Positions 1 through 41,459 of a DNA stretch of 64,000 nt are shown piece by piece (the first letter of the stretch is position 1; every line of letters starts with the position of its first letter). Source of the DNA: Dictyostelium discoideum (Eukaryota); assembly GCA_000004695.1 (NCBI GenBank), contig CM000154.2, forward strand, positions 1,440,001-1,504,000, in the 5' to 3' direction. The notes under the pieces are model-generated. The model made no database searches. It was not told where the DNA came from and saw only the letters and a program-made list of their open reading frames with translations. The position numbers and the translations under genes were made by a program.

Positions 1-3000
1 GTAGTTGGAGTTGTTGGAGTTGTTGGAGTAGTTGGAGTTGAAATTGAGGTTGGTGATAGATTTGTTGGAGTTGGTGTTTTTAAGATTGGTACTGGATTTG
101 GTGCTGGTGGTTTTTGAGAAGAAATTAATGTTGGCTTTGGTGTAATATTTGGTTTCATTGCAGTTGGAACTGATGGTTTTGGTGTAATATTTCCACCAGC
201 TAAGATAGTTTGAACTGTTGGTGTAGTTGCAACTGATGTTGTTGTTGTTGTAGTAGTAGTTGGAACTGATGATACAATAACTGAAGGAGTAGGTGAAGTT
301 GCTATTGGTGTGAAATTTTGAGTTAATTTTCTAACTAGTTGTGGATGAGGTTGAGGTGGTGAGGTTGTACCACTGCCACTACTTATGGTTGAAGATTTTG
401 GTTTTGTTGTTGTTGTTGCACCTGAATTTGAGTTAAAACCAGTAGAGATTGTAGACTTGGCAGAATTTGTTGTTGTTGCAGTTGCAGGATTTAAACCAGA
501 CATTATTAATAATCTTGAATGAATATCAATAAAGGTTGGTCTTTTAAGTGGATCATTTTGCCAACAATCAGTGATTAAAGTGATAAAGTCAGGATGACCA
601 CAAACAGAGTTTTGAGGAATTGTTGGTCTTAGACCGTTAGTGATTTCATCTTCTAATTGATACATAAAAGAGGAATGAGCGACAGGATATTCATCAAATG
701 GAAGTAAACCAGTTAAAATTTCCCATAGTACAATACCGAAACTGTAGACATCAGCCTTTTCAGTATACTCATCACCCCTCATGATTTCAGGAGATAACCA
801 AATTGGATTCGAAAGTTTATCACGACCGAGGGCACTTGTAACGACAGCTCTAGTTTCACCAAAATCAGAGACCTTGCAAACCACAGCAGCATTCATATCG
901 GAAAGCATTAAAATATTTGGGGATTTCAAATCACGATGACAAATCTTTGGAGTGAAACCATGCATATGTTTAATGGCATCGGCAATGTTGATTGCGATTT
1001 TCAATTTCAATTGCCAAGTGATTGAGGAGAAACTCTTTCTTAGATGACTATACAATGTTCCATTTGGTATGTACTCCATAACGATACAACATGGATCCAA
1101 ACAATAACCTTTCAAAGAAACTATACTTGGATGAGTTAGGGTGTTTGATAACCAAACTTCACGTCTAAATTCACGATAAATTTCAGAGGCAGCTTCAGCT
1201 TGGCCACTATCAATTGTGATTTGTTTAATTGCCACAAGTTGACCACGAAGTTTGCCTTTGTAAACTATACCAAAACCACCTTCACCAACTTTTTCAATGA
1301 TTTCAAGATCTTTATATTCTAGGGTAAAGTTTGGACCAATATCAGACATCATTAATTCAGGTACGAGTGAATCTAAACGAACTATAGTCTCTTCACCAGT
1401 GATGGAACTACGACAAACAACCTCGAATTTCTTTGATAAGAAGATACGTTCAATCTCTTCATATAAAAACATTGTACGTAAATCTTGAGTTTTAGAAGGA
1501 CCAAATGAAAGTTGTTGATTAATTAAATGTGAAATTTTTGATAAATCAAGTTGTCTTGATGAAGTGTTTGATAGTGAAGTAGATGAAGAGGAGGAGGAAG
1601 AGGATGAAACAGCAGTGGTCACTATTGAACTACTACTACCACTACCGGTTGTACCATTGATTTTTGGTTTATTAGTATTTCTATAGAGTGTTAAGAATTT
1701 AGAAGGATTCTTCTTTCTCTTTCCTTTTAATGTACCACCAGGTGAAACACTTTCACCATCGTAATAATCTGCAAAATCTAAATCTAAAATATCACCTGAA
1801 GTTTCATTTGATGATGAAGTTGAATCTGGATTTAATAATGGTGGTGATAATAATGATGGAGTTGATGATGAACTTGAAACATTTGAATTTAATGAATTTG
1901 TTGAAATACTACCACTCATTGATGATAATGAACTTGAATGTGTTAATTGTATTTGTGAAGATGATTGTTGTGATGCTAAAGATTGCGATGAAGATGATGT
2001 TGTTGTTGTTGCTGTTGTTGTTGTTGTTGTTGATAATTGTGGTTGTGATGTTGATAATGATGGTTGTGAAGATGTTAATGGTGTTGATAATGATGGTTGT
2101 GAAGATGTTAATGATGATGATGATGATGTTGATGTTGATGGTGATTGTTGTTGTTGATGATGTTGTTGTTGCGACATATTCACAATATTTACATTATTAT
2201 TATTATTACTACTTAAATTTATAGTACTATTAATAATATTAATTGAACCAATATTTGAAATTAAAATTGAATTACAATTGATACAATTACAAGGTACCAA
2301 GAAATGGAAATGTAATTTATACCAACCAGATATTAAAACTTCAGCTGTTTCAATTATAAATCTAAGGAGAGAAGCAGGATTTTTACCCCAAGCTTTAAAG
2401 TTAATTTGATTGAATTGTTGAATACTTTCAATTAAACATTGAGAATCATCTTTTTCAACCAAAAGTCCATTCTTCCAAAACTCTTTAACCGTAGTGAAAT
2501 GCATTGTTCTTATCATTAGTTTTGAAAAGAAACCAATTGGTAAGAATTCAAATTGATAAATTCTCTCTAAAAATGGTTGTTGTTGTTGACTCTTTAATAG
2601 AATTTGATCATAAAGTTTTTCAATTGAATTTGGTCTTTCTTCACTCAACAATATTGGTACTAAATGTTTTGTGCTACTCTTTGGAACTAATGTTATTGAA
2701 TCTGAGAAATTATTACTACTAGTATTTGGTGATGGTGTAGTAGAATTTGATGGTGATGTTGATTGATCATTGATTTTCTTTATAATACTTAATGAAGAAC
2801 CCTTTGAAATTGAACCATTACCAAATCTTGAAACATTTAATAATGATGTTGTATTTGTTGTACTATTAGTTCTATGTAAAGTTTTATTACCATTTGTTGT
2901 TGATGATGATGATGTTGATATTGCACTACCACTTGATTTCAAATTTGAACCTGAATTATTTAAAGATTTTTGAGTGGTTGATGGTGATGATGATGATGAT

Positions 3001-6000
3001 GATATGGTTGCTTTTGGATCAGGTAAAGGATGAACAATTTCAAACTTTTGTAAAATTGCTAATAAAACATGATGAAGATGTTGAGGGAAATCAGGTGGTT
3101 TCCAAATTTGATGAAGATTTGATTGATCTAGTACACCAGATTGTACGAAATTAGGTTTACTAGTGATAATGGTAGCCATAAGACGTGTTAACCAAGGGGG
3201 ATCAATGAAAATGAATTGATCAAGACCACTCTTTGGATCATCGAAATAAACGATTACACCCAATTCCTTTAAGAAATCAGCGGCAGCGGTGATTGAAGTT
3301 TGAGGGATACCACAAGAGATAGCCATTTCAGTGAATTCCGATAGGGTAATGATTGGTGGTGTATTCATTTCTCTTTCACTTAGGATTAAATTCTCCAATT
3401 GGAAATAACTTCTACTGAATAGATCACCCAATTTCTTTTCAGCTTTACCCAATTTGACGATATGATTCTGAAGTTTATTGATGTTTTTACCAGATTTACA
3501 ACTTACAGGTAAAAAGAATTTAACGTTTGGAAACTTTGTAAAATATTTACTGTGAATATCTTGAGTGATTTGATTGACATCTACACCATTTGGTAAATCA
3601 TCTAAATGAGTACCCACCAAGATAACTGGAGAATTACCACCAAACGCCTCGATACATTGTAACCAATAGGGTACACGTGATGTTTCATCAGGATTGTAGA
3701 CAGACATATCGAAAACCACAATGAAAACTGAACGACTACTAATAAAGAATTGATGAGTTGAATAGTAAACTTCTTGACCAGCAAAATCCCAAATTGAAAA
3801 AGTCACTGGTGGGGATTGATCCTCAGAGGGTGGTCTCCAATCGTCCATGTTGATACCATCAGTTGAGATATTTAAAGAGGTATTCAATGGGTTAATCGAT
3901 TGTGGGGCATTGAAATCAATTGAACCATTTGCTTCGGTTAGTGTTGGAGTTTTACTCTTCTTAGTGCCCAAACCAATGGTTTGACGTAACTTTTTACCCA
4001 CTGGTATAATCTCTTTCTTTAAACATTTTGCAATACTAGTTTTACCGACATTCTCTTGACCAACCAACATTAACTTCATACGCATACATGGTTTCTCCTT
4101 TGTTGATGCCAATTTCAAGTATTTCAAAATTCCAATTAAATCATCACCACTCAATACATCTGGTATTGAGATTTTAGCATTCGAAGCGCCATCGAATGAA
4201 ATTGGATTACCCGTTATATTTAAAACCTTTAGAGTTGTCAATTGTGATAATTGCCAAGGCAATGACTCTATGGCGTTATTTGATAGATTTAGAGTTTGCA
4301 ATGAAGAAAGTTTACCAATTTGTGGTGGTAAATCTTTGATACGATTATTTGTTAAATCCAATTCAATCAATGATGAAATTGAGCCAATTTCAATGGGTAA
4401 TGCTGATAGACCACAATCTGATAGATCCAATTTCGTGGCTTTTATAGCGATTGCTTCATAAATTCTTTGTTTAATTGGATGAAAACATGGTGAACCTGCA
4501 ATTGAAAATGATTCTAAACTCTTTAAACGTGTAAATATCTCAATTGGTAAACGATTGAAATAATTTCTTTGCATCATCAATACCTTTAGATTAACCAATT
4601 GTGATAAACTATTAACATTTATAGTTTCAATGAAATTGAAACTAATATCCAAATGATTCAATTTACATAGTGTACCAAGTTCAATTGGTAACGATGATAA
4701 ATTATTATGAGAAACATTTAAAAGTTTCAATTCTTTCATCTCTGAAATTTCACTTGGTAATGATGACAATTGATTATTTGATAAATCTAAAATTTGTAAA
4801 TTCTTTAATTCCTTTAAAATTGAAACTGGTATACTACTAATACAATTATGATCTAAATATAATTCTTTTAAATCTGAAATTCTTCTACTATCCAATGATA
4901 ACATATTTAATTTATTTAAAAGTTGTAATGAAATTTCTGAATAATCACATGATCCTAAATCTAATAATCCTTTATTATTATTTATTATTGTTGAACTTGT
5001 TGTTGAAGTTGAAGTTGATGGTGTTGTTGATTTTTGATTAACTTGTAATTGTTTTTTCTTTTTATCTAAACGATTTGTAACTGAAATTGCTTTTAATTTT
5101 ATACGATCACTATATTCTGGTGGTATTGATGGTAAAGTTATTCTTGATAAAACTGTACTATGACAAGAAACCCATTGATCAATGATTTCAGCACCCATTG
5201 ATTGAGTGATATTATTATCTTCTAAAAATAAGGCATTTAAAGTTTGATTAAATTTTAAAAGTTTTGAAATATGTTTTGCACCAGTATCTGTGATTTGATT
5301 CTGAGTTAAAATGACCACGGTAATTGATGGATGTGATAGAATACCATCAATCAAAGATATCAGACCTTTATCGGCTATTGTATTCTCGCTTAAATCCATT
5401 TGAATCAATGAATGATTATAACGTAACATATCACCCAATGCAACTGCACATGGATCATTGATTGAATTTTGAGATAATGTTAAATGAGTGATACTCTTAT
5501 TCAATGACATCATACCCAATGTCATTTGCATATACTTATCATTCATTGTCAATGGTATGAAAATTAATTGATTTACAAAATGTGTTGATGCCAATGCCGC
5601 AAACAATGGTTTTGGATCTGATATTTTCAACATTTGTGAAGTTAATTCAACCTTTGGTCTTTGACCACTAATTATCATTTTACAAAATAATGCAATATCT
5701 TTTGCATCTTCAAATTCATCTGGACCATCATCATTATTACTACCGTTATTATTACCGTTATTATTATTATTAAAATCATCAATTCCGCCTAAACCAATTG
5801 TACTATTTCTACCACCTGCTACAGTTGAGGAATAAGAATTGGTTAAATTATTTTGATTTTGATTTTGATTTTGATTTGATTTTAAAGAAGCTTGAGATAA
5901 AACTTGAAACCAAGTTGATTTCTCTTTTTCTGATGAAGTCATATAAAATATTGAAGATTCTTTAGTTTTAATTTGAAAACCTTTTCTATATTCAAATCCT

Positions 6001-6981
6001 AACTCTGGATCATCAACTTGAATATTTACAATTCTCTCCAACTTTTTCAATAAATAAAATGAACCATCATATGCCATCATTGTATTATTATTAATTGTAC
6101 TTGTATCTTCAATCTTTTCTGTAAATAATATTATATCTGAAAATAAAAATGTATAATATGAAATTCTTTGATTATTAAATTGTTCAATTAAAATACCTTC
6201 TTTTAAAAATTTTCTATTTTGAACAATATCTGAACTCTAAAAAAAATAAAAAAAAATTAATGTTAATAAATAATGGAAAAAATATAAATTTTTAAAAAAA
6301 AAAAAAAAAACACAACTTACATTAAATAAACCAATTGTTGGTGATTTAATTGATTTTGAAATTGAGATAACTTTGTTAATGTTTACAGATTCATTTACAA
6401 TATCTTTAACAACTTGAACAATTTGTTTATATAAATTATTGTATGGTTTATAATCTGGATTTAATACTGCTATTGAATCAATTAAAGATTTAAAGAATTG
6501 ATGAAATCTTGCCAAAAAATGAATTGGTAATATTAAAAGTGATGCTAAATTACTATAAGTATATTCCTGTGTGAATTTACCTGTTACACTATTACTATTA
6601 TTTATACCACTACTACCACCACCACTATTATTATTATTATTATTACTGTTAGCGCTATTTATTCCAGTAAATGTATGACCAGTTCTTCTTAATGTAACAG
6701 CTGGGAAAGAACTACCACTACTATTATTTGTTGATTGTGATGTAGTTTGATCATATTGTGAACCTAGAATCTCTGAAAGTGATACAGGTTTAACACAAGA
6801 TGATGATGATGAAGTTGGAACTAATGGTGCCAATGAATACTTGTGTTCATTAACTAACTTGCTCTCTGCATTATTTATAAAACTTTCAAATCTTTGATTA
6901 TCAAACATTAATAAACATAAACTACTTAAACTATAATTATATTGTAATCCATAAACTTTATATAATTTTAAATATCCAACC

Positions 6982-7031
<50 letters not shown>

Positions 7032-8036
7032 TGAAAATGAAAATGAAAATATTAATATATAAATTTTTTAATTAAATTAAAAAAAGTAATTTGTAATACA
7101 AACAAATTGTAAAAATGTTGAATGTAATTGCGCTTGAGTAGTTGAATTCCAATTACTAATATATTTTTTAAAGTCAATGAGAATTGTTTGTTGAAATGAT
7201 GAAATTGATTCAATTAAAGAGAAAATTGCCTTTAATTCCTCTTGTGATAATAAATCTGCTTTCTTTAATGGTTGATAAAACACATCCAATATCACTTTAA
7301 TTGCATCGCTACATCCTTGAAGTGATTTCATAAATCCTTCAACTAATTTCCTTCTATTCTCGTCAACTGGTGATTCATTAATTGAGTCCTCTTTATTATC
7401 TTTATCTTTTTCTTTTTCTTTTTCTTTTCTATTTTTTGGTGAATGTTCATTACTTATATCTTTACCACTTGCATTATTATTACCGCCGCTATCTAATGAA
7501 GTTACATTTATTTTTACAGTTTCTTTATTATTCGATGATGATACATTACTTCCAGTAGTATTGGAAGTTTTATTATTATTATTTATATTATTATTACTAG
7601 TATTGTTATTTTGTACAGATACCAATGAAGGTATATTATTTGATGATGTTGTTGTTGTAGTTGTGGTTGTAGTTGATGTATTCGTTACCCAGAAATCCAT
7701 TGCTTTTTTATGATTCTCTTGTGTCGTTGGATTTAATAAAATTGCATTTGCTTCTGCTGTGGATTGTGCTGATACTGATGAAGGTGGTGGTGGTGGAGGT
7801 GGTGTTGGTTCTGTTAAGTTACCAACCCATCCACCTACAATACTAAATAGACCGCCATCCTTTTCTTTATCCTTTTCCTTTTCCTTTTCTTTTTCTTTCT
7901 TTTCCTTCTTTTCTTTTTCTTTTTTCTCTTTATCTTTTTTCTCTTTTTTTTCAGATTTATCTTTTTTCTCTTTATCTTTTTTCTCTTCTTTATCCTTTTT
8001 CTCTTTATCTTTTTTCTCTTTTTTAATTACTTCCAT
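1..8036 (-). CDS. ROCO-family kinase, 5' partial in window, architecture K/E-rich N-terminus - RhoGEF(DH) - PH - RanGAP-like LRR - LRR - Roc GTPase - COR - protein kinase - S/T/P-rich tail; resembles a RhoGEF-containing Dictyostelium Roco (Roco5-like)
   Basis: Hand translation of the minus strand. Exon 1 is 7104..8036 (ATG at 8036; MEVIKKEKKDKEKK..., DH start RRKLVEGFMKSLQGCSDAIKVILDVFYQPL). Intron 1 has a GTTTGT donor and contains a (TAA)n tract. Exon 2 is 6321..6980 (DH continuation YLKLYKVYGLQYNYS...GLFN, then GTAAGT). Exon 3 runs from 6236 down past position 1. It encodes a PH-like segment (KEGILIEQFNNQRISYYTFLFSDIILFTEK) and LRRs at about 4100-5700. The Roc domain lies at about 3190-4090 (LMLVGQENVGKTS, WDFAGQE, LVGTHLDD), the COR region at about 2250-3190, poly-Q/H at about 1950-2200, and the kinase domain at about 540-1500 (VAIK, HRDLKSPNIL, DFG, SPE, DVYSFGIVLWE). 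The reading frame stays open through position 1, so the C-terminus lies outside the window. The ORF track shows no long ORF here only because the ORF runs off the window edge. Confidence 0.8.
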
Positions 8037-9134
8037 TTTTTTATTTATTTATTTAACACACACACAAACACACACAATAAAGAGGGAGAGGAAAAAAAAA
8101 TTTTAAATGAATTATTTATAAACAAAAGTATATATAGTATTTATAAAACTATATAAATAATAAAAAAAAAAAAAAAAAATTATAAAAACTAAATGTAAAT
8201 ATATGTTTTTTTTTTTTTTTTGGTTTTTTTTTTGGTTTTTTTTGGGTTGTTTTTTTTTTTTTTTTTTTTGGGTTGTGTTTTTTTTTTTTTTTTTTATATT
8301 TTTTTTTTTTATATTTTTTTTTTTTTTTTTGGTAATCCTTTTTTTTTTTTGTGTGATTGGAATGAAAATTGGTGATTAAAAAAAAAAAAAAAAATTGGTC
8401 AAGACTGTGAGTTTTTAAAAAAAAAAAAAAAATAAATAAAAATAAATAACAATTAAATTTAATTAAATATTTTTTTAATAATTATTTTTGTTTTTTGTTT
8501 TTTGTTTTTTGTTTTTTTGGTGTGTTTTTTGAGTGGTTTGTGTAAAACACAAGTGAGTGTTTTATTTTTTTTGTGATTATTAATAGATTTGGTTGTCACG
8601 ATGTGTTTTTTTATTATTTTTTTTTATTTATTTTTACTCTTTGTAGGAAAATTAAATAAATAATATAAATACAACAATAATGATATAAATACAGATGAAT
8701 ACAGATAGAATAAATATTGTTTTTTTTTTTTATTATTATTATTATTTTTTTTTTTTTACTTTATTTTATTTACTTATTTATTTTATTTTTATTTTATTTT
8801 TATTTTTTTATGATATTAATTGGTGATATTATTTTTTGTGATATCATACACAACAATTGTTTTTTTATTTTTTTTTAATAAAAAAAAAAAAAAATAATAA
8901 AATAAAAAAAAATAAAATAATAAATAAAAATAAAAAATTATAAAAACACAATAAATTTCTTTTTTTGTTCTAAAATAATAATAGAAAATGATATATTTTT
9001 AAAAAAAAAAAACAAAACAAAAAAAAAAAAAAAAAAAAAAGTTTTTTTTTTAATTATTATTTTTTTATTTTTTTTTTTTTTTTTTTTCTAAATCCTCTAA
9101 ATAAAGGGGTAGCAACATTAAAAATTTAAAAAAA

Positions 9135-10185: not shown

Positions 10186-10722
10186 TTTTGATTTATTGAT
10201 AACCATTTCCAAGTTGACAATTGTCACCCCAATAACCAAAGTCACAAACACAACGACCAGCACCACAATAACCTCTATTTGAGCAATTTGTTGGACAATT
10301 TGCAGGAGTGGTTGGTCTAATAACATATTCATAGGAGTTTGGAGAAAACCAAGTATAACCAGCTTGAGTGATTGAAATATCCTTTACACCATACCAGCAC
10401 CAATATTACATTTAATTTGATCAGTAGTAACAAGGGTTGGAGTACAAGTTTGACTTCCAATTAAGATAGAAATTGGAGAATTTGCTGTGAACCAACCATA
10501 GAAAATCACTTCACCACCGTCAGTGTATGATGGGAAAATTGAATAAACTTGGATTTTTTTAGTTGAGCAATCATTTCCAGTCCATTGATTAGTGCATGTA
10601 CATTGGTTATTTGAATTACAGGTACCACCATTTAAACAGCCATTTCCACATGTTCCTGCAATACAATTATTTATAAAAATTATAGAAATTAAAATTAAAA
10701 TTATTAAAAGAGTTTTTTTCAT
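10186..10722 (-). pseudogene. Secreted Cys-rich protein (signal peptide - EGF-like - IPT/TIG-like beta-sandwich - EGF-like) with an internal +1 frameshift; possible pseudogene or sequence error
   Basis: The ORF 10384..10722 gives MKKTLLIILILISIIFINNCIAG (signal peptide), then CGNGCLNGGTCNSNNQCTCTNQWTGNDC (EGF-like), ending ...DQIKCNIGAGMV*. Downstream, the +1 frame of the same strand continues a protein-like sequence (YGVKDISITQAGYTWFSPNSYEYVIRPTTPANCPTNCSNRGYCGAGRCVCDFGYWGDNCQLGNGYQ*) with a second EGF-like motif and a stop at about 10186. No plausible intron is present: the only GT..AG pair would be about 23 nt. Confidence 0.5.
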
Positions 10723-15103: not shown

Positions 15104-17511
15104 AATTAATATTATTAGAATAATTATTATTTTTAATTATATTATTAAAAGATTATTATTTTAAACTTACCCTATAAAAGTTTGATGATGTAATAAATAT
15201 TCTATATCTTTTGTGCCAATTTCTTTAATGATTTCTTGGATTTTAGTATCATTTTTCATTTTACCATTAATATCACTGACAATCTTTCCCATTAAAGAAG
15301 TTGTACGTTTAATGGTTTTATGGTTTTGTTCATCTTCTTTTGGTAATGCTTTACTCAATTCTTTTAATAATAAAGGATATTTACAAAGTCTTTGACATGG
15401 TTTAATTAAAAATGAATGTAGATTGTTTAGTTTACAAATTGGTATTAATTTTTGAAATATTTGTGCTGCTGTTTGATTTGTTAATAAAATTTCCTGTAAA
15501 AATTTATTACAACTATCATGTGATGATAAATATGATCCATATCTTTGAAAACTTTTACTCTATAATATTAAAAATATTATTAATTAGTATTTTTTTTTTT
15601 TTCTTATCTAATAATTGTTTTTTTTTATTTTTCAAAAGACTTACATTAAATAAAAAAACTTCTTCAATATTTGGATATTGATTCTTTTCTAATAATGGAA
15701 TACAATTTAATAACATTGGATAAATTTTTAAAGAAATATGATAAACTTCTTCAAAATTTGAAAAGATTGAAAAAATATCTCTTTTTTCCAATATTTTATA
15801 TTTTACCATTTCCAATGCGGCAAAAAGATAAAAATTAATTGTAATTTCCATATGGTCTAAATAGTCTGCCTCAGTTTCTATGATTTCTTTAACAACCTTA
15901 TTAAAAATGGTTGAATCATTAATATATGGTAATTGTGATCTTCTTGATGGTATTGATTCAAATTTTTGTTGTTGTTCTTCAATTTTTTCAAATATAACAG
16001 ATTTGAAATCAAATTTATTAAAAAGAGATGGTCTTTTTTTTGATACTGTTGCATTTGGAATTAATGTACTAACTGGTTCTTCTGGTAAACTTACAGTTCT
16101 ACCATGTTTTGTTTCTGTAACTTTTAATGTGTCCTTGTTATTATTATTGTTGTTATTATTATTATTATTATTATTAGTAGTAGTATTGTTATTATTATTA
16201 TTGCTATTATTTTTATTTGTTGTTTGATTTTCTTGATCATCTTCATCACTACAAGAACCTCTAAGATTATATGAACTTTTACTAATTACAAATGAACCCC
16301 TATTAGAAGAAGATACACTTTTAAGATTAGGTTCACTATCAAGAGTAGTACCACTCTTTTTGGATAGTTCTGATTCATTTTCATCATCGGTATCAACTCC
16401 ATTATCAAGTAATTTCATAGTGGCAGCTTTTCTAGTAAAAACTCTTTGTCTTCTAGTTCTAACGACAGGTGATATTTGTGATTGACTTAACTCTGATGAA
16501 TCATTACCAAAAACATAGTCATCAAAGTTTTCAAAATTAGGTTTTGATGGTTCAAAATTTAAAAAATTACTTGGAGATTTACCACCACTTCCACTACTAC
16601 TACAACAACTACCACTACTATTTAATGATGATGGAAATATTGTTGGGTTTGTTACATCAAATAGAGTTGTTGACCTTTTTGGTGCTATATTTGAAAATGA
16701 ACTATCGATTGGTTTATTTGCCGATCTCCAACCATTTGATGTATTTAATAAATTTCCAAGAGGTGGTGGCGATGATGACAATGGAGATGTGGAGTTTTGT
16801 AAACCCTCATTATTATTTTGATCATTAAAAGTTTCAATTTTAGAAGGTACTCTTGGTAATGGTTTAGGTGCCATTGTGTGATAATCTTCTTTCTCTTGAT
16901 CGATTGGTATTGGTGGAAGAGGTTTATTTTTATTAAATTCTGGTGAATTAAATTGTGGTGGAGTTGTTGATGTTTTAATATCTTCACCACTATAATTGTC
17001 ATCATAATTATCATCATAATTGTCACCATCTTCTTTTTTTTCAAATGTAATATTAATTGATGGTGGTGTTGTTGGTATATAATTAGTGATTTTTTCATCT
17101 GCACCATCATTCATTAAAAATGCTCTTGGTGGAACAGGTGGACGTTTTGGTTTTGGTAATGGTTCAAGTAATGGCATGGATAAACTTTTTCTTCTTGATC
17201 TTTCTCTATTATTATTTTTGATATTATTGGTATTACTATTATTATTGTTATTGTTATCAAATGATTTTGATAAATTTTTTATTTCCATTTCATTATCTAT
17301 AAAAAAAAAAAAAAAATAAAAGAAAAAATAATGGTAATAATAAAAAAAAAAAGAAATTAAAAAAAAAATAAATAAAAAAAAAATAATAATAAAAATAATA
17401 ATTGAAAAAAAAAAATTAAAAATTAAAAAAACAAAAAATTAAATTGAAATAATAAAATAAAATAAAAAAAGTGAATAAATAATTTATAATAATAATTTTA
17501 TAATAATGAAG

Positions 17512-23357: not shown

Positions 23358-23481
23358 TTAGTTTGAGGTATTATTATTATTATTAATATTATTATTTATA
23401 CATTCACCACTATTTTCTAAACTTGTATTATTTGAGTTTATATTATTTTCATTAATATTATTTTCATTAATATTATTATTG

Positions 23482-23567
<86 letters not shown>

Positions 23568-25522
23568 ATTAATATTAATATCTTTTTCAGAGACATTAAA
23601 TTTATAAGAACCAGTTAAAATCTTTAATATATTAATTGCCTCATCAATATCATTTAACCAAATTAATTTATCTTGATAATTATCACAAGAAAGTTTAATT
23701 GATAATGTGTTAACATTTACAGTTGGTGTTGAATTTGTTGTTGTGGTTGTAGTTGTTGGTGTTGAATTTGTAGTTGTTGTAGTTGTTGGTGGTGTTGATG
23801 ATGTTGTATCATTTGTTGAAGATAAATTATTTTGATTATTATTATTATTATTTTGAATATCATTATCATTTAAATAATTAATTGAAATACCAAATTGAAG
23901 TTCTCTTTCAATATCAATAATTTCTAAAATATTTTTTAAAGGAATAATTTTAACCTTTTTTTTAAAGGTACCTTTTTCAAAGATAATTAAAATTTGACTT
24001 AAAAGGTATAAAGTTACAATTACTTTATTACCTTTTTTTTTTAATTTTTTAATTCTATTTGAAGATTTTAAAAATGTTTGATCACGTAATTGTTGTTCAA
24101 TATCTTTTGTACCAATTTCTTTAACAGTTGATTGAATTTTATTATCATTTGCCATTTTACCATTGATATCATTGACGATCTTTTCCATTAATATTAAAGA
24201 ACGTTGGAATATTTTATGATGTTCTTCAGCCTCCAATGAATCATCTTCTGGTGGTAATGCCTTTTTCAACTCTCTTAATAGCAATGGATATTTACAAAGT
24301 CTTTGACATGGTTTAATTAGGAATGATTGTAGATTCAATTGCTTTGAATGTGGTAACGATTTAACATATTGAAAGATTTGATTCACTACATTGTTTCCAT
24401 CGATTAATGAATTCAAAACTTTGATTGAATGATCATGTGTTGATAAATATGAGCCATATCTTTGGAATGCTTTTGAATTGTAAAGAAAGATCTCTTCAAT
24501 ATTGGGATACTGATTCTCATGGTCCAACACTGGTATAATATTCAATAACATTGGGTAAAGGCGTAACGAAACGTAGTAAAGCTCTTCAATATTTGAAAAG
24601 ATTTGATAGATATCATTTGCTGTCATTAATTTATATTTTGACATTTCCAATGCTGCGAAATAATATAAATTAATTATAACCTCCATTTGATCGATATAAT
24701 CTGCTTCAGTTTCAATGATCTCTTTAATCACCTTATTAAATGATGTTGATGAATTAATTGGTGGTAATAATGATTTTCTACTTGGTTTTTGTGATAATTG
24801 AGTGGTGATTGTATATTGTACATTTATCTTTTCGATTAATATAGTCTTTATATCTAATGTATCTCTTCTTAATGTACCTGATATAAATGATGTTTTCTTT
24901 TTATGTGATGATATAAAATTACTAACTGATAATCCATTATTAGGATTAATATTAATTGAAATATTATTAAAACTTGTATCATTTAATGAATTTGTTGATG
25001 TTGTTGTTGTTGATGCTGATGATGATGCTGATGCTAATGATAATGAACTGTTTGAATTATTTGAATTATTTGAATCATCACTATTAAAACTATTAATTAA
25101 ATCATTATTAATATTTTCATTACTATTGATTGTTAAAAATTCATTTGAGACTGAATTTGATGGCGACATTGATGGTGGTGTTGTTGATGGTGTTGGATTT
25201 GCTGATGATGGTGTTGATGGTGATACTGATGTTGGTGTTGTAGATAACGACAAGGATGAAAAATCTTCACCATTTAATTTCATTGATGCTTGTTTTCTTG
25301 TAAAGGTTCTTTGTCTAAGAGTTCTTAAATCTGATGCCGCTATATTTTGAGAATCTTGAATTGGTGCTATAATTGGTGTTTGTTCAATTACTACTGTTGG
25401 TGTATTGGTTATATTTGCTGTTGATAATGATGTTACTGGTATTGGTGATATATCATTTCTTGGTGCAATTTTTGGTCTTGGTGGCTTAGTTGATGTTGGT
25501 GGTAAAGGTTTATTATTATTAC

Positions 25523-25582
<60 letters not shown>

Positions 25583-25873
25583 ATGCTATGGTTTGTGAAG
25601 GTGGAGTTGTTGGTGGTGTTGTTACATTATTATTTATTGTTGTTGTTGTTGTTGCTGTTGTTGCTGTTGTTGATGATGGTGATAAAGTTTGATATTTTAC
25701 ATTTGTTGAATTTATATTTGTTGATGTTTTTGTAGTTGCTATTGTTGGTGGAGTAGTTAAAGTACCACTAGAACTCCATGGTCTCGGTGGTGGTGCAGGT
25801 TTATCATTTGGTGGTGGTATTGGTAAAGTTTTTACAGAATGTGATCCAAGTTTTGAAATATAATTATTATCAC

Positions 25874-25955
<82 letters not shown>

Positions 25956-26756
25956 GTTATTAGTGGTGGTAGTATTTAGTGCTTCATCTGGATTTGGTGG
26001 TACTGGTGAAGTTGGTCTTGATGGTAATTTTGGTAATGGTGAGGGTGGTCTAGTTGGTAATTGACGTCTTGGTGATGGTAATGGTGATAAAATTGTAGGT
26101 GTAGGAGCAGGTGATGGTGATGGTGATGGTGAGCCTGATATATTATTATTATTATTCTTCTTTATTATAGATGTTGGTGATAATGTATTTGGTGATAAAT
26201 TACTTGGTGTATTATTATTGGCACTACCACTATTATTAATGTTATTTATAGTTGATAGTAAAGGTTTTGGTGGTAGAGAGGGTGATGATGATGAAGATGC
26301 TGTTGATGATGATGATGATGGTTGTTGTTCATTATATTTTGAAATCATTGTTGAAACTCCTGAAACTATTAATTAATTTTATTTTTTAATTTATTTTTAA
26401 TTTATTAATTTTAATCATAATGGTTAATTTTTTTTTTTTTTTTTTTTTTTTTTTCCTCAATAATTTTGTTTTTATTTTTTTTATTTTTATTTTTAAAAAT
26501 AATTTCTATACATACATTTCCTTTGAGGTAAAACTTGATGTGTTTGTTGTTGTTGTTGTTGTTGTTGTTGTTGGTTTTTATCAATTTGATTTACAAGAGA
26601 GCCAACACTAAACATTTTTTGGTTAGAATTTTCATTAATAATTTTATTTTTATTTACAAAGGTATTATTATTATTGTTTACCACTGTTGTTGTATTTTTT
26701 GGTGGAGTTAAAAATTGGTGGCTGGGAGATGGATTCGAGGTTGAATTTTTTCTCAT
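23358..26756 (-). CDS. RhoGEF (DH-PH) protein, paralogue B; long Pro/Ser/Thr/Asn-rich N-terminus; probable 5' exon
   Basis: Structure is complement(join(23358..26365,26516..26756)). The main ORF is 23358..26348 (996 aa). Its DH domain is NKVIKEIIETEADYIDQMEVIINLYYFAALEMSKYKL...LIKPCQRLCKYPLLLRELKKALPPEDD...GTKDIEQQLRDQTFL. Its PH domain is KKKGNKVIVTLYLLSQILIIFEK.... The pre-DH motif RTLRQRTFTRKQASMKL is shared with paralogue A (RTRRQRVFTRKAATMKL). The upstream ORF 26493..26756 (MRKNSTSNPS...HQVLPQRK) ends at a GTATGT donor in phase 1. The acceptor aattaatAG at 26366/26367 joins in frame to ...FSGVSTMISKYNEQ. The 5' exon is tentative. Confidence 0.8.
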
Positions 26757-30618: not shown

Positions 30619-33138
30619 ATGGTTAATTTCACAATCGATCAAATTCGTGCCATTATGGACCGTCGTGAAAATATCAGAAATATGTCTGTTATTGCTCATG
30701 TCGATCACGGTAAAACCACTTTATCAGATTCTTTAATCCAAAGAGCTGGTATTATTGCCGATAAAGTTTCTGGTGATATGAGATATATGTCATGTCGTGC
30801 TGATGAACAAGAGCGTGGTATCACCATTAAATCTTCATCTGTATCACTTCACTTCGAAATGCCAAAGGAAGACAAATTACCAGCTGGTTGTACTTCACAC
30901 GAATTTTTAATCAATCTTATCGATTCCCCAGGTCACGTTGATTTCAGTTCAGAAGTAACTGCTGCCCTCCGTGTTACTGATGGTGCTTTAGTCGTTATCG
31001 ATTGCGTCGAAGGTGTTTGCGTACAAACCGAAACTGTATTACGTCAAGCCGTCGCTGAACGTATCAAACCAGTCTTATTCGTCAACAAAGTCGATCGTTT
31101 CTTATTAGAACTCCAATTAAACACTGAAGAAGCTTATCTCTCTTTCCGTAGAGCTATTGAATCCGTCAATGTCATTGTTGGTAACACTGAAGATAAGGAA
31201 TTCGGTGATGTCACTGTATCCCCAGAAAAAGGTACCGTCGCTTTCGGTTCTGGTCTCCACGGTTGGGGTTTCACCTTAGGTCGTTTCGCTAAATTATACG
31301 CTGCTAAATTTGGTGTCCCAGAAGATAAATTAATGGGTCGTTTATGGGGTGACAGCTATTTCGATGCTACCGCCAAGAAATGGACTTCCAATCCACAATC
31401 TGCCGATGGTAAAGCCTTACCAAGAGCTTTCTGTCAATTCGTTCTCGAACCAATCTACCAATTAACCAGAGCCATCGTTGATGAAGATGCCGTCAAACTC
31501 GAAAAGATGATGAAGACTCTCCAAATCACTTTAGCCCCAGAAGATGCTGAAATCAAAGGTAAACAATTAGTTAAAGCCGTCATGAGAAAATTCCTTCCAG
31601 CCGCCGATGCTATTTTATCTATGATTGTCACCCATTTACCATCACCATTAGTTGCCCAAAAGTACCGTTGTGCCAATCTCTATGAAGGTCCAATGGACGA
31701 TGAATGTGCCGTCGCCATTCAAAAATGTGATCCAAACGGTCCATTAATGATGTACGTATCAAAGATGGTTCCAACCTCTGATAAAGGTCGTTTCTATGCT
31801 TTCGGTCGTGTCTTCTCAGGTATCATCCGTACCGGTCAAAAGGTCAGAATTATGGGTGTCAACTACGTCCCAGGTAAGAAAGACGATTTATTCTTAAAAT
31901 CCATCCAACGTACCGTTCTTATGATGGGTAGAAAGACTGAACAAATTGAAGATTGTCCATGTGGTAACATTGTTGGTTTAGTCGGTGTCGATCAATTCCT
32001 TGTCAAATCTGGTACCATCACCACCTCTGAAGTTGCTCACAACATTCGTGTCATGAAATTCTCCGTATCACCAGTCGTCCGTGTTGCCGTCGAACCAAAG
32101 AATCCATCTGATTTACCAAAACTCGTCGAAGGTCTCAAACGTTTAGCCAAATCCGATCCATGTGTACTCTGTTACTCTGAAGAATCTGGTGAACACATCG
32201 TTGCCGGTGCTGGTGAACTCCATCTCGAAATTTGTCTTAAAGATCTTGCTGAAGATCACGCTGGTATTGAAATTAAAACCACCGATCCAGTCGTATCATT
32301 CAGAGAATCCGTCTCAGAAGAATCATCAATCATGTGTCTTTCTAAATCACCAAACAAACACAATCGTCTCTTCATGAAAGCTTCACCAATCTCTATGGAA
32401 TTACAAGATCTCATTGAAGCTGGTTCTGATATCTCATCCAAAGATGATCCAAAAGCTCGTGCTAACTATCTCGCTGATAACCACGAATGGGATAAAAATG
32501 ATGCCATGAACATTTGGTCTTTCGGTCCAGAAGGTAACGGTGCCAATCTCCTCGTCAATGTCACCAAAGGTGTTCAATATTTGAATGAAATTAAAGATTC
32601 TTTCGTTGGTGCTTTCCAATGGGCCACCAAAGAAGGTGTTGTTTGTGATGAAAACATGAGAGGTATCCGTTTCAATCTTTATGATGTCACCCTCCACACT
32701 GATGCCATCCACAGAGGTGGTGGTCAAATCATCCCAACTGCTCGTCGTGTACTCTATGCTGCTGAATTAACTGCCTCCCCAACTCTCTTAGAACCAATCT
32801 ACTTAGTAGAAATTACTGCCCCAGAAAACGCTATTGGTGGTATTTACTCTGTACTCAATCGTCGTAGAGGTATTGTTATTGGTGAAGAACGTCGTATCGG
32901 TTCCCCATTATTCTCTGTCAAAGCTCATTTACCAGTATTAGAATCCTTCGGTTTCACCGCTGATTTACGTTCCCACACTGCCGGTCAAGCTTTCCCACAA
33001 TGTGTCTTCGATCATTGGGCTTCAATTGGTGTTGTCAACAAAGATAAGAAAGCCACTGAAGTCGCTTTAGCCACCAGAAAGAGAAAAGGTTTAGCCCCAG
33101 AAATCCCAGATCTTGACAAATTCCACGAAAAACTCTAA
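30619..33138 (+). CDS. efbA: Translation elongation factor 2 (EF-2), single exon, 839 aa
   Basis: The ORF is 30619..33138. The N-terminus is [73 protein letters not shown]. The GTP-binding G motifs are present, and the diphthamide-region motif [25 protein letters not shown] and a canonical EF-2 C-terminus are also present. Codon usage is GC-rich for this genome, which fits a highly expressed gene. Confidence 0.97.
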
Positions 33139-34121: not shown

Positions 34122-37100
34122 TTATTTATTTAAATCTTTTTTCAAAGATTCAAATAAAAATTCTTTTTGTTGAGTTGAAATAAAAGGTAAAAGATTTTGG
34201 AAACCATCAACGATTGATTCTGAATCTGATTGAACAAAATTTAAAATTTGATTGATAGCATATTGTTTTGAAAGATCAATAATCTTATCATTAATTATAT
34301 GAGAATTTGATTCGATTGTTGAAGAAATTAATTTATCGTTTTGATGGTAATCAACTGATTGATTGTTACCAAGGATTTGTTTAATCCAAGTTTCCAATAG
34401 ATTCAATTTTGATTGACGATTTAAACCTGGATGAGATTTATCGATTAATTTTAATTTATCCTCTTCAAATAATCTTCTCTTTATACGATCATAGAAGAAG
34501 GAACGAGCCGATTTCCATGGTACCATTTGTTTAATAACACCCTTTGCTTTCATTCTACCTGGAGTATCATGAAGATCAGCAAATTTAATGGCAATTTGTT
34601 GATAAATACCCAAGAGTTCTTTTTCTCTTTGTTGAATTTGAGATTTAATGGTCTTTTGAGATTGATCCAAACCATTGACACTAACACCAATTGGAATTGA
34701 TTTATCCCATTCAATAAGTTTTGGATCTAAACGATGCATAGTTTTAATGAGTTCTGGATCTCTATATTTAATTTCAGCGATACCATTTGGTTCCAATACA
34801 CCACCTCTACCTTCTTCACTACAATACATTTCCATCATATCCAAATTGATTGTTGAATCTAAAACTACCCAAGCACCACCACGTAATTCAGCAAATGGTG
34901 GAATATAGACCATAACTGGTTGTTTATAGTTTCTAAGGTTATCGACAATCATTGAACCAAATTTAAGGATTTCATCAAACATATCTCTCATACCACCACT
35001 AAAACCTCTCCAATTGGCCAAGATCATCAATGGTAACTCTTCACCATTATTGAAATCAGCGATTGCTTGAGCGGTCTTGAATGAAGAATCTGGATACCAA
35101 ACTTGGCCTGCTTGAGTATTAACTTGTTCATAAGAGAGTGGATTTGCTGGATCAGCAGGAATGATCTTTTCAACACTCTTTGTCTCGACTGCAATGATAC
35201 CAACTGGAATACCACCTAACCTAGCACGACCAGTGATTACAGTATTTGCCCAGCCAGCCAATGTTTCCATGAAACTATCCTTATCAAACATACCAGAAAT
35301 CCAATAGTTTGGATCGAGTTCCGATTGTAAACCTGCAATCAAATGTCTAGTATCACATTTACCATTGATTGAATTGGAAGGATCAAATTCGATATCTCTG
35401 TGTGGTGAATCGATTGGTGAAATAATTGGTACCATTTCACCACCACTCTTTGGTACAAATGATAACCATTGAAGTACATTTGTAATACCACGAAGTTCAT
35501 CATTGACAATGATATGAGAAACACCATTTGGATACATAATTTGTGAACCACCCAATTGTTGATTGGATTCATAGACTTCTTTACCCAAAACTTTATTCAA
35601 AGCTGAAGCACCAGTTAAAATGATTGGAGCATCATTTTGAATGGTTCTTTGACCCAATCTAACTAGGTATGCACCAATACCAACTGAACGACCTGATACG
35701 AGTGTAATTGTAAAGATTTCATTGTAAGCTTGTGAGGTTTCACCAGCGATTAAACCTGACCAACTTAAATTTTCAACACCAATACCATTTTTTTGACCAA
35801 TGATATCATGAATGATCCATTTGTCTTTATCGGTAGTATCTTGATAAGCAATGACACTATCTTTTAATGCTTGATAATCGTTATTGGTTAAATAAAGGTT
35901 TTTAATACCTTTGGTTGGATCGGATGGAACGTTCCAAGTTACTTTAAATTTACTCTTAATTTCATCGGCTAAACCAATTCTAGCACCAGAATTTGAAGAT
36001 AAATAAATTCTTGGTATTTTTTCTTTTCTTGCCAATTCCGAAGCCAATTTAAATAACATATCTTCTTGTGGACCGAATGAACCAATTTGGTGAGTGATAT
36101 CATTAGCAATCACTATGGCCTGTCTACCTAATGGATATTCAGGAGTATAGAAAGTCATTCTCCAAGCTACCATACCAATATCATTGTAACCAATTGGACG
36201 ATAGGTTTCTTCAAGTTTTGGTTTACTCTCTTCTGGTAATTGATCCAATGGAATTGATGGTGGGAAATCAGTATTGATAGTAGATGGTAGAATCAATTCA
36301 ACACTTTCTAAAACACCACGAGATGATGGATAAACCTTGACAGGATTTGTTTTATTTGATTCCATAAATTCCATCCAAATGTTTTGCATTGCCTCTCTAA
36401 AGAGATCAGGATAATCATAACAATAGGTTGTATCTAAACGTTGAGCTTTAAATCTATTTCTTTGAACAGCATCCATAATTGGGTAAGGTGTATCAACTGG
36501 TAAACCTTCCCAACTACCTTTTGAACTACCAGGTACAACTGCGAAAACCATTTGACCAATTGAATTTTGTTGTTCATAATAGCATTGAACTTGGAAAGCA
36601 TAACCAGTTGGGTTTTGTACAAAGAAACGAACTGGAATTAAACCATCACCTTTTCTAATACGACCTCTAACCTCTACACGACCAACTCTAAGTTTCCAAA
36701 GTCTTTTACCTAAACGATCACCAATCTCTTGAACTACATAACCAATCATTTTCTCATCAAACATTACCTCTGGCATTACATTTAAAAATATTGAATGATT
36801 TTGTGCTTTTTCATACTTTTTATTTGACATTGCAATCTCTAATGATTCAATTGACTCTGAGAGTAGAGTTTCAATTTGTGATAATAAAATATCAACTTTA
36901 ATCTCATTGGAATGACCATATAGATCTGAATAACGAATAACTGAACGTACAAAGAAACTACGATCAGCATCCGGATCAGTTTCTTTCTTACCTTTCTCTT
37001 GAGCATAGTAGAGATGAATTCTTTGACTAGTGGTTGGAACGTGAGTTATATCGAAATTTGATAATTTTCTAACCTCTAAATGATAGGCCATAGCTGGTTC

Positions 37101-40100
37101 AATATGTCTAAAGATTGGATCCTCCATATACATATGACGTTCTCTAAAAGTGAAATATTTCAATGGTTTACCTTCATCACCACCACAACAAATAAATGTT
37201 ATACGACGAATACGTGCAATTGACAACTCTTTAATATAACCCTTTAATATTGATTGGAATGAAGAGATAGCTTGATTCTCTTGTGAGATTGATTCTGGAT
37301 AGATTGAAATGATAACACTAAGAATATCTGTACTTTCATTTGGTGAGAGGGATAATTGAGATTTCTTATTATTCTCTTCATTGTAGCGTGTTAAAATCAA
37401 TGGTAATTTCTCTTCAAATTTCTTTTCATTTTCAAAGAATACCATCATACCATAACGAAGTTTTGTTTGATCTTCCATTGCAGTTAATGAGTCAGTTGAA
37501 TCAGTTCTTAACATTGATAAACCATTAAAAATTGACATTGATGGTCTTGGTGAAATTTGGAAACCACTACCACCACTACTACCACCACTACTACTAATAG
37601 ATCTTATTAATGGTGAACCATAAGTTGGTGAGCCACTATTACTACCACCAAGATTTGATTGTTGTGGTAAATTAATATAGAAATGCCATTCAATGAATGA
37701 AAATCCACTTGATCCTTCATCATTTGATAGTGTAACTTTAGTATCTTCAACATAATAGGAACGATAACTATGACGTACATAAACTTCCATTGCTAATTTA
37801 CGAATATCATCATCATTATTTGATTCATTGAAAAACATTGGTATTAAAATATCACTAATTTCATTTGTTTGTTTTGATAATTTTGAAATTTTTTCATCCT
37901 TATTATCTTGAACTTTTTCATCAACTTGTTGTTGTTGTTCATTGTTTACATTTAAAATTGATTTTAATGAATTAATTAAATCATTTGATCTTTGTTTATT
38001 TGAAGGTAATTGAGAATGAACCATGATATGTTTAGCTTTTAAAGAGATTTCCATACAATTACCACCAAGTGATGATAATTTTTTAAATTGTTCAACGAAA
38101 TCACAAACTAAACCTTGTTCTTGAATTTTATTTAGTAATAATAAAATGAATTTATATTTTTTAGATTGTGGATGTAATGATTGAGCGATATCAACAACCT
38201 TTGAAATATTATCTTTATAGGTAGGTCTAATTGATTTTAAAACTGTTTGAATATTTTTATTTTGTAAATTAGTTTCAATTTGAATGAATTCTTCTAAATA
38301 ATTTTTAAAGATATTAATCGCAGCGAATGAAACACCATCATTATATTTCTCTGCTAATAAAATGATTGGTTTAATTAATAATTGAATTGCAATTGATAAT
38401 TGTTCATTCTCTAATAATAATTTATTTAAATATAATGAAATTGATAATTGTAAATTTTTTGAATTAAATAATTCACTATCATCTTCATCGTCGTCGTCAT
38501 TATTAAATTCAAATTTATTTAATTCATCATTAATTAATTTAAATAATGATTGTGGTATTCTTGACTGAACAATTGATAATTGTTCTTTAAATTCAAATAA
38601 TGGTAATTTTTGATTTGATAATTGTTTAATTGTATCATTTAAAAGTTGATTTAAATCATTTGATTCATAACCACATAAAACATTTGAAATTTTACCAAGA
38701 GTATAATTTAAGAGTTGATGTGGTTTATTACCAATTAGAGTTGGTGGTGACATTTTTGTAAGGGAACCAGTGAAAACGGTTGATTTTTGAATTGATGATT
38801 GGTCTGATAATTCCAAGTTAGCAATGATTGCACCAGGTGCCATTACTGAACCTTCAGTGAGTACGAATTTAATGATACCTTTCTCTGGTACTAACAATGG
38901 CATATACATTTTCATAACTTCAATCTCTGCAAATGGAGTACCTTTTACAACTAATGAACCATCATCAACCAAATAACGTACTAATTTACCAGGTGATGAG
39001 GTTCTAAGTATACTTGGATCATATTCTTGAGAGAAAACACAAGTTTTAGAGTCAATCATTAATGATAACCCAATTACATCCTCTCTACCATAACAAACAT
39101 GTGTTGAACCATTCAATAGAATTAATAAACCACTATCGGATAACATTATAACACTTGAATCGATTGAGACTGCACTTTTATCATTCTTTAAACAAACTGA
39201 ATAATTGTTTATACCAGTTCTTGAGACTTCAAATTGATATTTAACATTATTATAGATCAATTCAATTGGTAGCGAATTATTTAATAACTCCAAACTTGGT
39301 AATTGACCATTTGATAATTGATTTGAGAATTCTTGAATCTTTGTTGAGAAAATGGTTGAAGCTTTATAGATTGCACCACATAATACAACGATCATTGTTT
39401 CTGGTTTTTTAGTTTGAATCTTTTCACTAATCAATTGATCTAACCAACCGGTATGAATATGGTTCTCTTTGAAATCTTTACTCTCCAATAAATGAATGAT
39501 ATATTCCACTGGGGTTCTAATATCACCACGAATTGAAATCTCTTTTAGACCCAAAATAATGGTTTTTCTAGCTTCTTCTCTTGTTGCACCATTGGCAAAG
39601 ATATGACCAAATTGTGAATCTGCATACTCGTGAAGACCACCTTTAGCACCAACACTGAAATAACCCCAAATATTTGGTGTACTTCTAAAGGTGAGTTCAT
39701 GGATTTGACCAGACGTTGGTTTAAAACCCTCATCAGGATTTTCACCTGTGATTCTAACTGCAATACAATGACCAGCTGGTGGATTACGTTTAGTGAAATC
39801 GTGTAAATCAATCATTGAATCCCCATAGAGATCATCACCAGTACGACCATACAATTTTCTAATATCCGGTATTCTATGTAATGGTATACCCATTGCAATT
39901 TGTAATTGAGTTGCTGGTAAATTTACACCAGTGATTTGTTCAGTCACTGGATGTTCAACTTGAAGACGTGGATTCAATTCCAAAAAGTAATATTCTCCCT
40001 CTGCAAATAAATACTCTACTGTACCAGCACCAACATAACCAACCTCTTTGACTAAACGTACGGCGGCACGTTCCATCTCTTCCCAAACTTGTGGGGTTGG

Positions 40101-40970: not shown

Positions 40971-41459
40971 TTCATCTGAAATAATTTTAAAAAACAATTA
41001 AAAAAAATAAAAATAAAAAAAAAAATAAAAAAAAAAATAAAAAAAAAAATAAAAAAAAAAAAAAAATGAAAATATTAATATTTTAAAACAGTAATTAAAT
41101 TATTTTTAAAAATAAATATGATTAAAAAAAAAAAAAAAAATAAAAAAAAAATAAAGTAAAAAACAAATAAAATAAATACTAATAAAAAACTATATTGAAA
41201 CTATTTAAAGTTTTTAACCTATATTACAATTTTTCTATGTTGGTTATGGTTTGGTTGTTAATTTCCTTATCCCCTTTTTTTTTTTTTTTTTTGTTTTTTT
41301 TTTTTTTTTATTTTTTTTTAAAAAAAAAAAAAAAAATTAATTTTAAATTATAAGTTTGAAAGTTTTAATTTGTTATTGTTATTATTGTTATTGTTTTTAT
41401 TTCTATATTTTTATTGTTGTTGTTATTGTTGTTATTACCCGTATTTTATTATTTTATTA

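Follow-up and report, generated by a model that had tools for sequence, protein, structure and literature searches.

LRRK2 and LRRK1 are built on a core of leucine-rich repeats (LRRs), a Roc GTPase, a COR domain and a kinase, to which LRRK2 adds N-terminal armadillo and ankyrin repeats and C-terminal WD40 repeats. GbpC (Roco1) is a Roco kinase with a built-in exchange-factor domain for small GTPases and is the paradigm of an intramolecular relay from guanine nucleotide exchange factor (GEF) to Roc to kinase. In SOS1, a Dbl-homology (DH) and pleckstrin-homology (PH) pair is coupled to a REM-Cdc25 RasGEF, and this DH-PH module is mainly autoinhibitory and is released by lipid. Dictyostelium discoideum has 11 Roco genes, with flanking domains that include RasGEF, RhoGEF and RhoGAP (PMC6320773; PMC6337361), and ROCO kinases fall in the TKL group of the kinome (PMC1420674). 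Here we describe the first 8,036 positions of a 64,000-nucleotide stretch of D. discoideum DNA (the window), which, read on the minus strand from 8036 to 1, we are highly confident hold the first 7.8 kb of the coding sequence of roco5, one of these 11 genes, with the domain order described below and, as the probable mechanism, a Roc-gated kinase with a DH-PH input module.

The gene, its architecture and its mutant phenotype are already in the literature and in dictyBase and UniProt, and the finding is an accurate rediscovery. Entries in the PMC8923023 supplement give Roco5 an N-terminal RhoGEF domain, file roco5 under both Roco GTPases and RhoGEFs, record orthologues in five dictyostelid genomes and summarize mutant phenotypes in cAMP signaling and slug migration. 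Neither roco5 nor a RhoGEF/LRR kinase is named in the main text of Sawai et al. 2007 (PMC2323234), which leaves the summary in that supplement as the basis for the mutant phenotype. As a discovery the locus has no value, and roco5 serves instead as a positive control for the scan, in which a reader without tools correctly reconstructed a three-exon gene of 2800 residues together with its domains. The only point that is even mildly new is that the Roco5 clade has lost its DH signature residues, a loss that the roco5 literature consulted does not mention. This matters for the place of Roco5 in the count of ~46 Dictyostelium RhoGEFs and for the way in which accessory domains act on LRRK2-like kinases.

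Compared with these systems, Roco5 shares the LRR-Roc-COR-kinase core of LRRK2 (E = 5e-80, in three stretches) and LRRK1 (E = 2e-64), together with a THLD-type G4 motif and a TKL kinase, but it lacks WD40 repeats and ends in a low-complexity tail, whereas LRRK2 has no DH-PH; the LRRK2 kinase also carries DYG where Roco5 has DFG. Like GbpC, it joins a Roco kinase to an exchange-factor domain for small GTPases, but the extra domains of GbpC are C-terminal (RasGEF, DEP, cNB and GRAM) and make it cGMP-responsive, whereas those of Roco5 are an N-terminal DH-PH and a ribonuclease-inhibitor-type LRR block. With SOS1 it shares a DH-PH that has lost the same signature residues: the Glu of conserved region CR1 is Ile in SOS1 and Leu in Roco5, and the Gln-Arg of CR3 is Tyr-His in SOS1 and His-Phe in Roco5. 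Roco5 differs from SOS1 in having no RasGEF domain, and since LARG scores better overall than SOS1, the resemblance probably reflects parallel loss rather than specific kinship.

Gene structure and identity

The start codon of roco5 lies at position 8036 on the minus strand, behind an A-rich leader (AAAAAAATGG), and the N-termini of the orthologues begin as the model does, which supports this choice of ATG. The parts of the gene are as follows (slashes mark exon-intron junctions):

1..8036, minus strand: coding part of roco5 (DDB_G0294533) in the window, codons 1-2609 of 2800, from open frames, splice sites, dictyBase coordinates and phosphosite numbering
7104..8036, minus strand: exon 1, residues 1-311, with the K/E-rich N-terminus, the GGLFSIVGGW and QENHKKAMDFW motifs and the start of the DH domain
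6981..7103, minus strand: intron 1, 123 nt, GT..AG, in phase (TTT/GTTTGT...TTAAG/GTT), with orthologues bridging the junction
6321..6980, minus strand: exon 2, residues 312-531, with the remaining DH domain, including its low-complexity insert
6237..6320, minus strand: intron 2, 84 nt, GTAAGT..AG, in phase (AAT/GTAAGT...TTTTAG/AGT), with orthologues bridging the junction
1..6236, minus strand: exon 3, the rest of the coding part in the window

This structure can be read directly from the sequence. In a six-frame scan of positions 1-8200, one minus-strand frame runs from 6236 to 3 through 2078 codons without meeting a stop, and the same frame holds two further open stretches upstream, 8048-7080 and 7067-6240. 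A sequence-only reading of this DNA, made without database searches, had proposed the gene as one very large polypeptide, which a stop or frame break in 1..6236 would have split; none occurs, and both introns it had drawn, 6237..6320 and 6981..7103, have GT..AG splice sites at exactly these coordinates. Because each intron length is divisible by 3, the frame is kept, and the exons 8036-7104, 6980-6321 and 6236-1 join in frame into 2609 codons without a stop. At the protein level the two junctions (LQF/VGYLK and GLFN/SSDIV) are gapless in D. purpureum, Polysphondylium violaceum and two more orthologues. A prokaryote-style list of open reading frames (ORFs) holds only the two upstream pieces, as separate ORFs, and the long stretch has no entry there because it runs off the window edge. 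G+C makes up 28-38% of roco5 and 12-17% of the intergenic DNA on its flanks, a composition that supports coding. On the opposite strand, a 115-aa ORF at 7759-8106 (plus strand) made of SF/FS repeats arises from reading the K/E-rich N-terminal repeat of roco5 in reverse complement; it is an artefact and no real gene.

The identity of the gene follows from its position and numbering. For the species, the elongation factor 2 gene of the window adds support, as its product is 100% identical to that of D. discoideum AX4. A dictyBase header (DDB0232931, DDB_G0294533) reproduced in the PMC6397043 supplement places roco5 on chromosome 5, position 1439427 to 1448036, which with the ATG at 8036 makes the window chr5:1440001-1504000. 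The gene then runs 574 nt past window position 1, which with 2 leftover bases is exactly 192 codons, and the product is therefore 2800 aa long, with 191 residues outside the window. Two phosphosites appear in that supplement, S1628 with the 13-mer SLNNSGSNLKSSG and S1656, both reported from chemoattractant phosphoproteomics in vivo. The 13-mer is centered on residue 1628 of the three-exon model and residue 1656 is Ser, and the model therefore shares its numbering with the curated protein. Coordinates, a strand-consistent start, the length of 2800 aa, both phosphosites and the published architecture all agree with Roco5 (DDB_G0294533, Q1ZXD6), and we detected no difference in these respects. 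Some points do weigh against the assignment. The equation with UniProt Q1ZXD6 is made by coordinates, length and two phosphosite positions and not by full alignment; the model covers residues 1-2609, the last 191 lying beyond the window; and the homology search matches include no D. discoideum protein, neither Roco5 nor a paralogue. Roco paralogues from Cavenderia fasciculata and D. purpureum are among those matches, and the source species seems to be missing from the search results.

The closest database proteins are four full-length orthologues with the same Pfam content and 55-72% identity: D. purpureum DICPUDRAFT_148631 (72%), Polysphondylium violaceum CYY_002928 (61%) and two other dictyostelid proteins of the same architecture. 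Conservation is highest over the C-terminal half of the DH domain and the PH domain, the LRRs, Roc, COR and the kinase, with the DH C-terminal half and PH reaching ~80% identity across species. That the region is instead a pseudogene, or two or more genes wrongly joined (one for a RhoGEF, another for a Roco kinase), can be dismissed with near certainty: the separate upstream entries in the ORF list and the long low-complexity linkers between domains would suit it, but the stop-free frame of 2078 codons with in-phase GT..AG introns is a single one, the four orthologues are collinear across their full length, the dictyBase span and residue numbering fit one 2800-aa product, and phosphopeptides of that single product have been detected in vivo.

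Domain architecture

Profile hidden Markov models (HMMs) from Pfam were run on the 2609-aa conceptual protein and on separate segments of it. From N- to C-terminus, they and the sequence composition give a K/E-rich N-terminus, DH, PH, ribonuclease-inhibitor-type LRR, typical LRR, Roc, COR-A/COR-B, TKL kinase and an S/T/P-rich tail:

6354..7364, minus strand: DH (RhoGEF) domain, residues ~225-520, Pfam RhoGEF (PF00621) match at residues 246-353; spans intron 1
5871..6326, minus strand: PH domain, residues ~530-653, straight after DH, PH_13; spans intron 2
5118..5546, minus strand: ribonuclease-inhibitor/NLR-type LRR block, residues ~762-904, LRR_6 39 bits
4167..4871, minus strand: typical (SDS22/LRRK-like) LRR block, residues ~987-1221, LRR_8 88.8 bits, LRR_14 73 bits, LRR_4 65 bits
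3453..4085, minus strand: Roc GTPase, residues ~1249-1459, PF08477 Roc 76.3 bits (cut-off 27), Ras 44 bits
3018..3413, minus strand: COR-A, residues 1473-1604, PF16095, 94.4 bits
2571..3017, minus strand: S/T-rich low-complexity linker between COR-A and COR-B, residues 1605-1753, with phosphosites S1628 (2946-2948) and S1656 (2862-2864)
2277..2570, minus strand: COR-B, residues 1754-1851, PF25497, 75.8 bits
510..1307, minus strand: TKL-type kinase, residues 2175-2440, PK_Tyr_Ser-Thr 166 bits
1..509, minus strand: start of the S/T/P-rich C-terminal tail, residues 2441-2609, by composition

This domain content is observed directly, and it bears out the proposal that a single LRRK2-like polypeptide combines DH-PH with two LRR types, Roc, COR and a TKL kinase: the RhoGEF, PH, LRR, Roc, COR-A, COR-B and kinase models were all found when the domain HMM check was run, the matches to LRRK2, LRRK1 and Roco4 agree, and so does the published roco5. 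The Roc domain recognized by Pfam has COR directly C-terminal of it, as in the Roco family, and the LRRs before Roc together with a TKL kinase with intact catalytic motifs after COR give the LRRK-type (group 1) order. The DH domain is recognizable and has its PH domain directly behind it, as in the Dbl family. The REM and Cdc25 domains that follow DH-PH in SOS-type RasGEFs are absent, which limits the likeness to SOS1 to the divergent DH-PH, and the Pfam scan found no cyclic-nucleotide-binding, RasGEF or RasGEF_N domain in the 2609 residues.

The RhoGEF model scores 54.5 bits on the whole protein and 63.5 bits, in two stretches, on the segment alone (cut-off 27.6); a low-complexity insert of ~70 residues (~376-445, window 6579-6788) divides the domain. 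Solved DH-PH structures matched by this region include LARG (E = 9e-11), SOS1 (E = 6e-9), FGD5, intersectin, FARP and collybistin. The PH_13 match (32.1 bits against a cut-off of 27) comes from the segment scan and is not listed in the whole-protein scan, with PH_16, SOS1_NGEF_PH and PH matching the segment more weakly, and the segment aligns with the PH domains of SOS1, FGD5 and LARG. The orthologues carry precomputed PF16652, and two carry a precomputed SOS1_NGEF_PH match.

Both LRR blocks that the sequence-only reading had seen are present, but its label of RanGAP-like for the first did not hold. Among solved structures, that block matches ribonuclease inhibitor (E = 1e-19) as well as NLRP3 and other NLR LRRs, and RanGAP is absent from the top 60 such matches; we therefore dropped the label on the strength of these matches and describe the block as ribonuclease-inhibitor/NLR-type. 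The second, typical block matches the LRRs of SHOC2 and LRRK2. LRR_1 is also among the matches of the whole-protein scan.

The Roc motifs G1 GQENVGKT (1257), G3 DFAGQ (1348) and G4 THLD (1407) are invariant in 5 species, as are the kinase motifs GEGGFG, VAIK (K2202), HRDLKSPN (2298), DFG (2322) and SPE (2346). Two of the latter, HRDLKSPN and DFG, had been the grounds for calling the kinase TKL-like, and the nearest solved kinases agree: the Roco4 kinase domain (E = 5e-56), followed by LRRK2, TAK1, CTR1 and MLK. The Roc and kinase motifs are intact, a direct observation, and as far as such motifs can tell they are compatible with an active enzyme. Between its P-loop helix and switch I, Roc also contains an insert of ~45-60 residues (residues ~1264-1345, window 3790-4040, minus strand; KKLRQTIGLGTKKSKTPTL...INPLNTSLNISTDGINMDDW), which is near-invariant across the dictyostelid orthologues and divides the Pfam Roc match.

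The S/T/P-rich tail does continue past the window, for 191 residues, as had been suggested; the further domains that had been thought possible there are not seen in the tails of the four orthologues, which are likewise S/T/P-rich and in which no extra Pfam family was found. A short conserved end, LLRPTG..FKK, is shared by 3/4 orthologues. At the other end of the protein, the motifs GGLFSIVGGW and QENHKKAMDFW (residues ~60-120, window 7677-7860, minus strand) are conserved in all orthologues, match no Pfam family and are flanked by the K/E-rich repeat and low-complexity sequence.

Loss of DH signature residues

With a profile built from five Roco5 DH-PH sequences, a search of 1.84 billion representatives gave only three further Roco5-like proteins at E < 1e-30; the next match had E = 2.6e-23, and there were 1879 generic DH matches at E <= 1e-3. 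The best 150 matches and the canonical RhoGEF gene of the window (23358-26348) were aligned back to the Roco5 profile, which allowed 147 nearest non-Roco5 DH representatives to be compared with 7 Roco5-clade sequences at the signature positions:

CR1 Glu: 141/142 generic DH domains; L, F, I or T in the Roco5 clade, with Glu in 0/7
CR3 Pro: 140/141 generic DH domains; retained in the Roco5 clade, Pro in 7/7
CR3 Gln: 136/141 generic DH domains; His in 7/7 of the Roco5 clade
CR3 Arg: 138/141 generic DH domains; Phe in 7/7 of the Roco5 clade
CR3 Tyr: 139/141 generic DH domains; Phe in 7/7 of the Roco5 clade

The positions are thus 96-99% conserved in generic DH domains, and the Dbl-family signature (CR1 TE, CR3 QR..RY) is directly seen to be absent from Roco5. 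In D. discoideum the replacements are Leu239 (7320-7322) for the CR1 Glu, His465-Phe466 (6516-6521) for the CR3 Gln-Arg and Phe470 for the CR3 Tyr, while the internal control, the RhoGEF gene at 23358-26348, has a canonical ETEADY and KPCQRLCKYPLLL. In SOS1, the aligned DH has Ile at the CR1 Glu position and Tyr-His at CR3 Gln-Arg. The Pfam RhoGEF match passes over the CR1 motif because its local alignment begins at profile position 16. A different CR3 register, which would keep the Arg, was suggested by a single-sequence alignment with FGD5; we rejected it, as the register from 141 DH domains lines up Pro, Gln, Arg and Tyr at 96-99%. The DH Asn downstream of CR3 aligns fuzzily, with Asn in about half of the sequences at either of two columns.

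Possible roles of the DH-PH module

The CR1 Glu touches switch I in Dbl-family complexes (Tiam1, Dbs and intersectin), and its mutation abolishes exchange. Since the CR1 Glu and the CR3 Gln-Arg are lost in every dictyostelid orthologue, a binding or regulatory role is favored, and on balance we lean towards a DH-PH that binds a GTPase or lipid or is autoinhibitory, as in SOS1, rather than one that works as a conventional Rho/Rac exchange factor. The module, with ~80% identity over the DH C-terminal half and PH, is functional, but it is probably not a textbook exchange factor. A fuller version of this idea, which is plausible but which we put forward more tentatively, is that the DH-PH lost its signature before the dictyostelids diverged and was then kept by strong purifying selection, as a GTPase- or lipid-binding, an autoinhibitory or a private Roc-partner input. 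If so, Roco5 would be a kinase regulated by Rac or lipid and not an activator of Rac, and its listing as a RhoGEF would be wrong.

Several observations weigh against this preference for a binding or autoinhibitory module. The case against conventional exchange is built from sequence comparison, and the ~80% identity of the DH C-terminal half and PH shows that there is a function but not which one. The SOS1 CR3 alignment taken alone scores -2.7 bits, which is not significant, and an AlphaFold2 model of the DH-PH from a 5-sequence alignment (pLDDT 31.8, pTM 0.22) is unusable. The similarly divergent SOS1 DH reportedly exchanges on Rac within a protein complex, and signature loss is therefore no proof of inactivity.

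If the DH-PH were instead a working Rho/Rac exchange factor, then Roco5 would activate Rac as well as signal through its Roc-gated kinase, coupling cytoskeletal Rac activation to kinase output. This would fit the RhoGEF score of 63.5 bits against a cut-off of 27.6, the PH domain directly behind and the strong conservation of the DH-PH in dictyostelids. Literature and gene ontology (GO) lists excerpted in the PMC8923023 and PMC6397043 supplements place roco5 under RhoGEFs and "regulation of GTPase activity", and the summarized cAMP signaling and slug migration phenotypes are compatible with cytoskeletal regulation. We nevertheless consider a working exchange factor unlikely. The CR1 Glu and the CR3 Gln-Arg-..-Tyr are missing in 7/7 Roco5-clade sequences against 96-99% conservation in the 147 DH domains, the loss of the CR1 Glu by mutation is what abolishes exchange in Dbl-family GEFs, and the favorable Pfam alignment, starting at profile position 16, skips CR1. 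The sequence-only reading had called the DH-PH a Rho-activating module, and with these residues missing, exchange activity is no safe assumption.

A relay within the protein, in which the DH-PH would act on its own Roc as an atypical exchange factor or a nucleotide-state sensor and so switch on the kinase, seems improbable to us. The clade-specific invariant DH replacements His465, Phe466 and Phe470 and the clade-specific conserved Roc insert beside switch I could both mark a private interface. Against it, the Roc of Roco5 is not Rho-like, and we know of no partners of DH domains outside the Rho family of GTPases. The precedent is GbpC, in which, according to an entry in the PMC8923023 supplement and a figure legend in PMC6320773, a GEF domain on the same chain switches on Roc and, through it, the kinase. 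The G domains of Roco proteins, however, have low nucleotide affinity and are generally GEF-independent, a matter of ongoing debate (PMC6337361).

Returning to the DH-PH as a binding or regulatory module, a mechanism for Roco5 can be proposed in which all biochemical activities are ascribed by analogy. By family resemblance, Roc would bind and hydrolyze GTP and cycle between its GDP and GTP states, COR would mediate nucleotide-dependent dimerization, and the state of Roc-COR would gate the adjacent kinase as the output, with the N-terminal DH-PH presumably serving as a conserved input or targeting module. Gating of the kinase by Roc-COR is a mechanism shown for GbpC and LRRK2 (PMC6320773, PMC6337361 and a passage in the PMC8923023 supplement), and the analogy draws on work with bacterial Roco proteins as well.

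Neighboring genes in the window

Within 20 kb of roco5 there are two more genes with a RhoGEF domain, at 15555-17288 and 23358-26348, both on the minus strand and both with the canonical CR1 TE, unlike roco5. The starts of their DH domains are near-identical (FNKVIKEIIETEADYIDQMEVIINLYYFAALEM and FNKVVKEIIETEADYLDHMEITINFYLFAALEM, respectively), which suggests a local duplication; one of these RhoGEF neighbors is 996 aa long. Upstream of roco5, in an intergenic stretch of 12-17% G+C, a small ORF at 10384-10722 (minus strand) begins much like a signal peptide and contains an EGF-like, Cys-rich motif (CGNGCLNGGTCNSNNQCTCTNQWTGNDC); it probably represents exon 1 of a small protein that is secreted or sits in a membrane.

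Farther along, 30619-33138 (plus strand) encodes elongation factor 2 (EF2), 100% identical to D. discoideum AX4 EF2 (P15112/XP_636721), and 34122-40997 (minus strand) encodes a 2291-aa acetyl-CoA carboxylase. When neighboring ORFs were looked up by exact sequence, EF2 and a 484-aa ORF had entries, and the 996-aa RhoGEF neighbor and four other ORFs had none. The second-largest subunit of an RNA polymerase, with Rpb2 domains 1-7, is encoded at 54498-59084 (plus strand) and has an insertion of ~450 residues (aa 433-889) between Rpb2_3 and Rpb2_4. This insertion matches Intein_splicing at 33.6 bits, just below the cut-off of 35.8, and Hint, and Intein_splicing is also listed in the precomputed NCBI annotation of the contig. 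We take it to be the known D. discoideum RPC2 intein.

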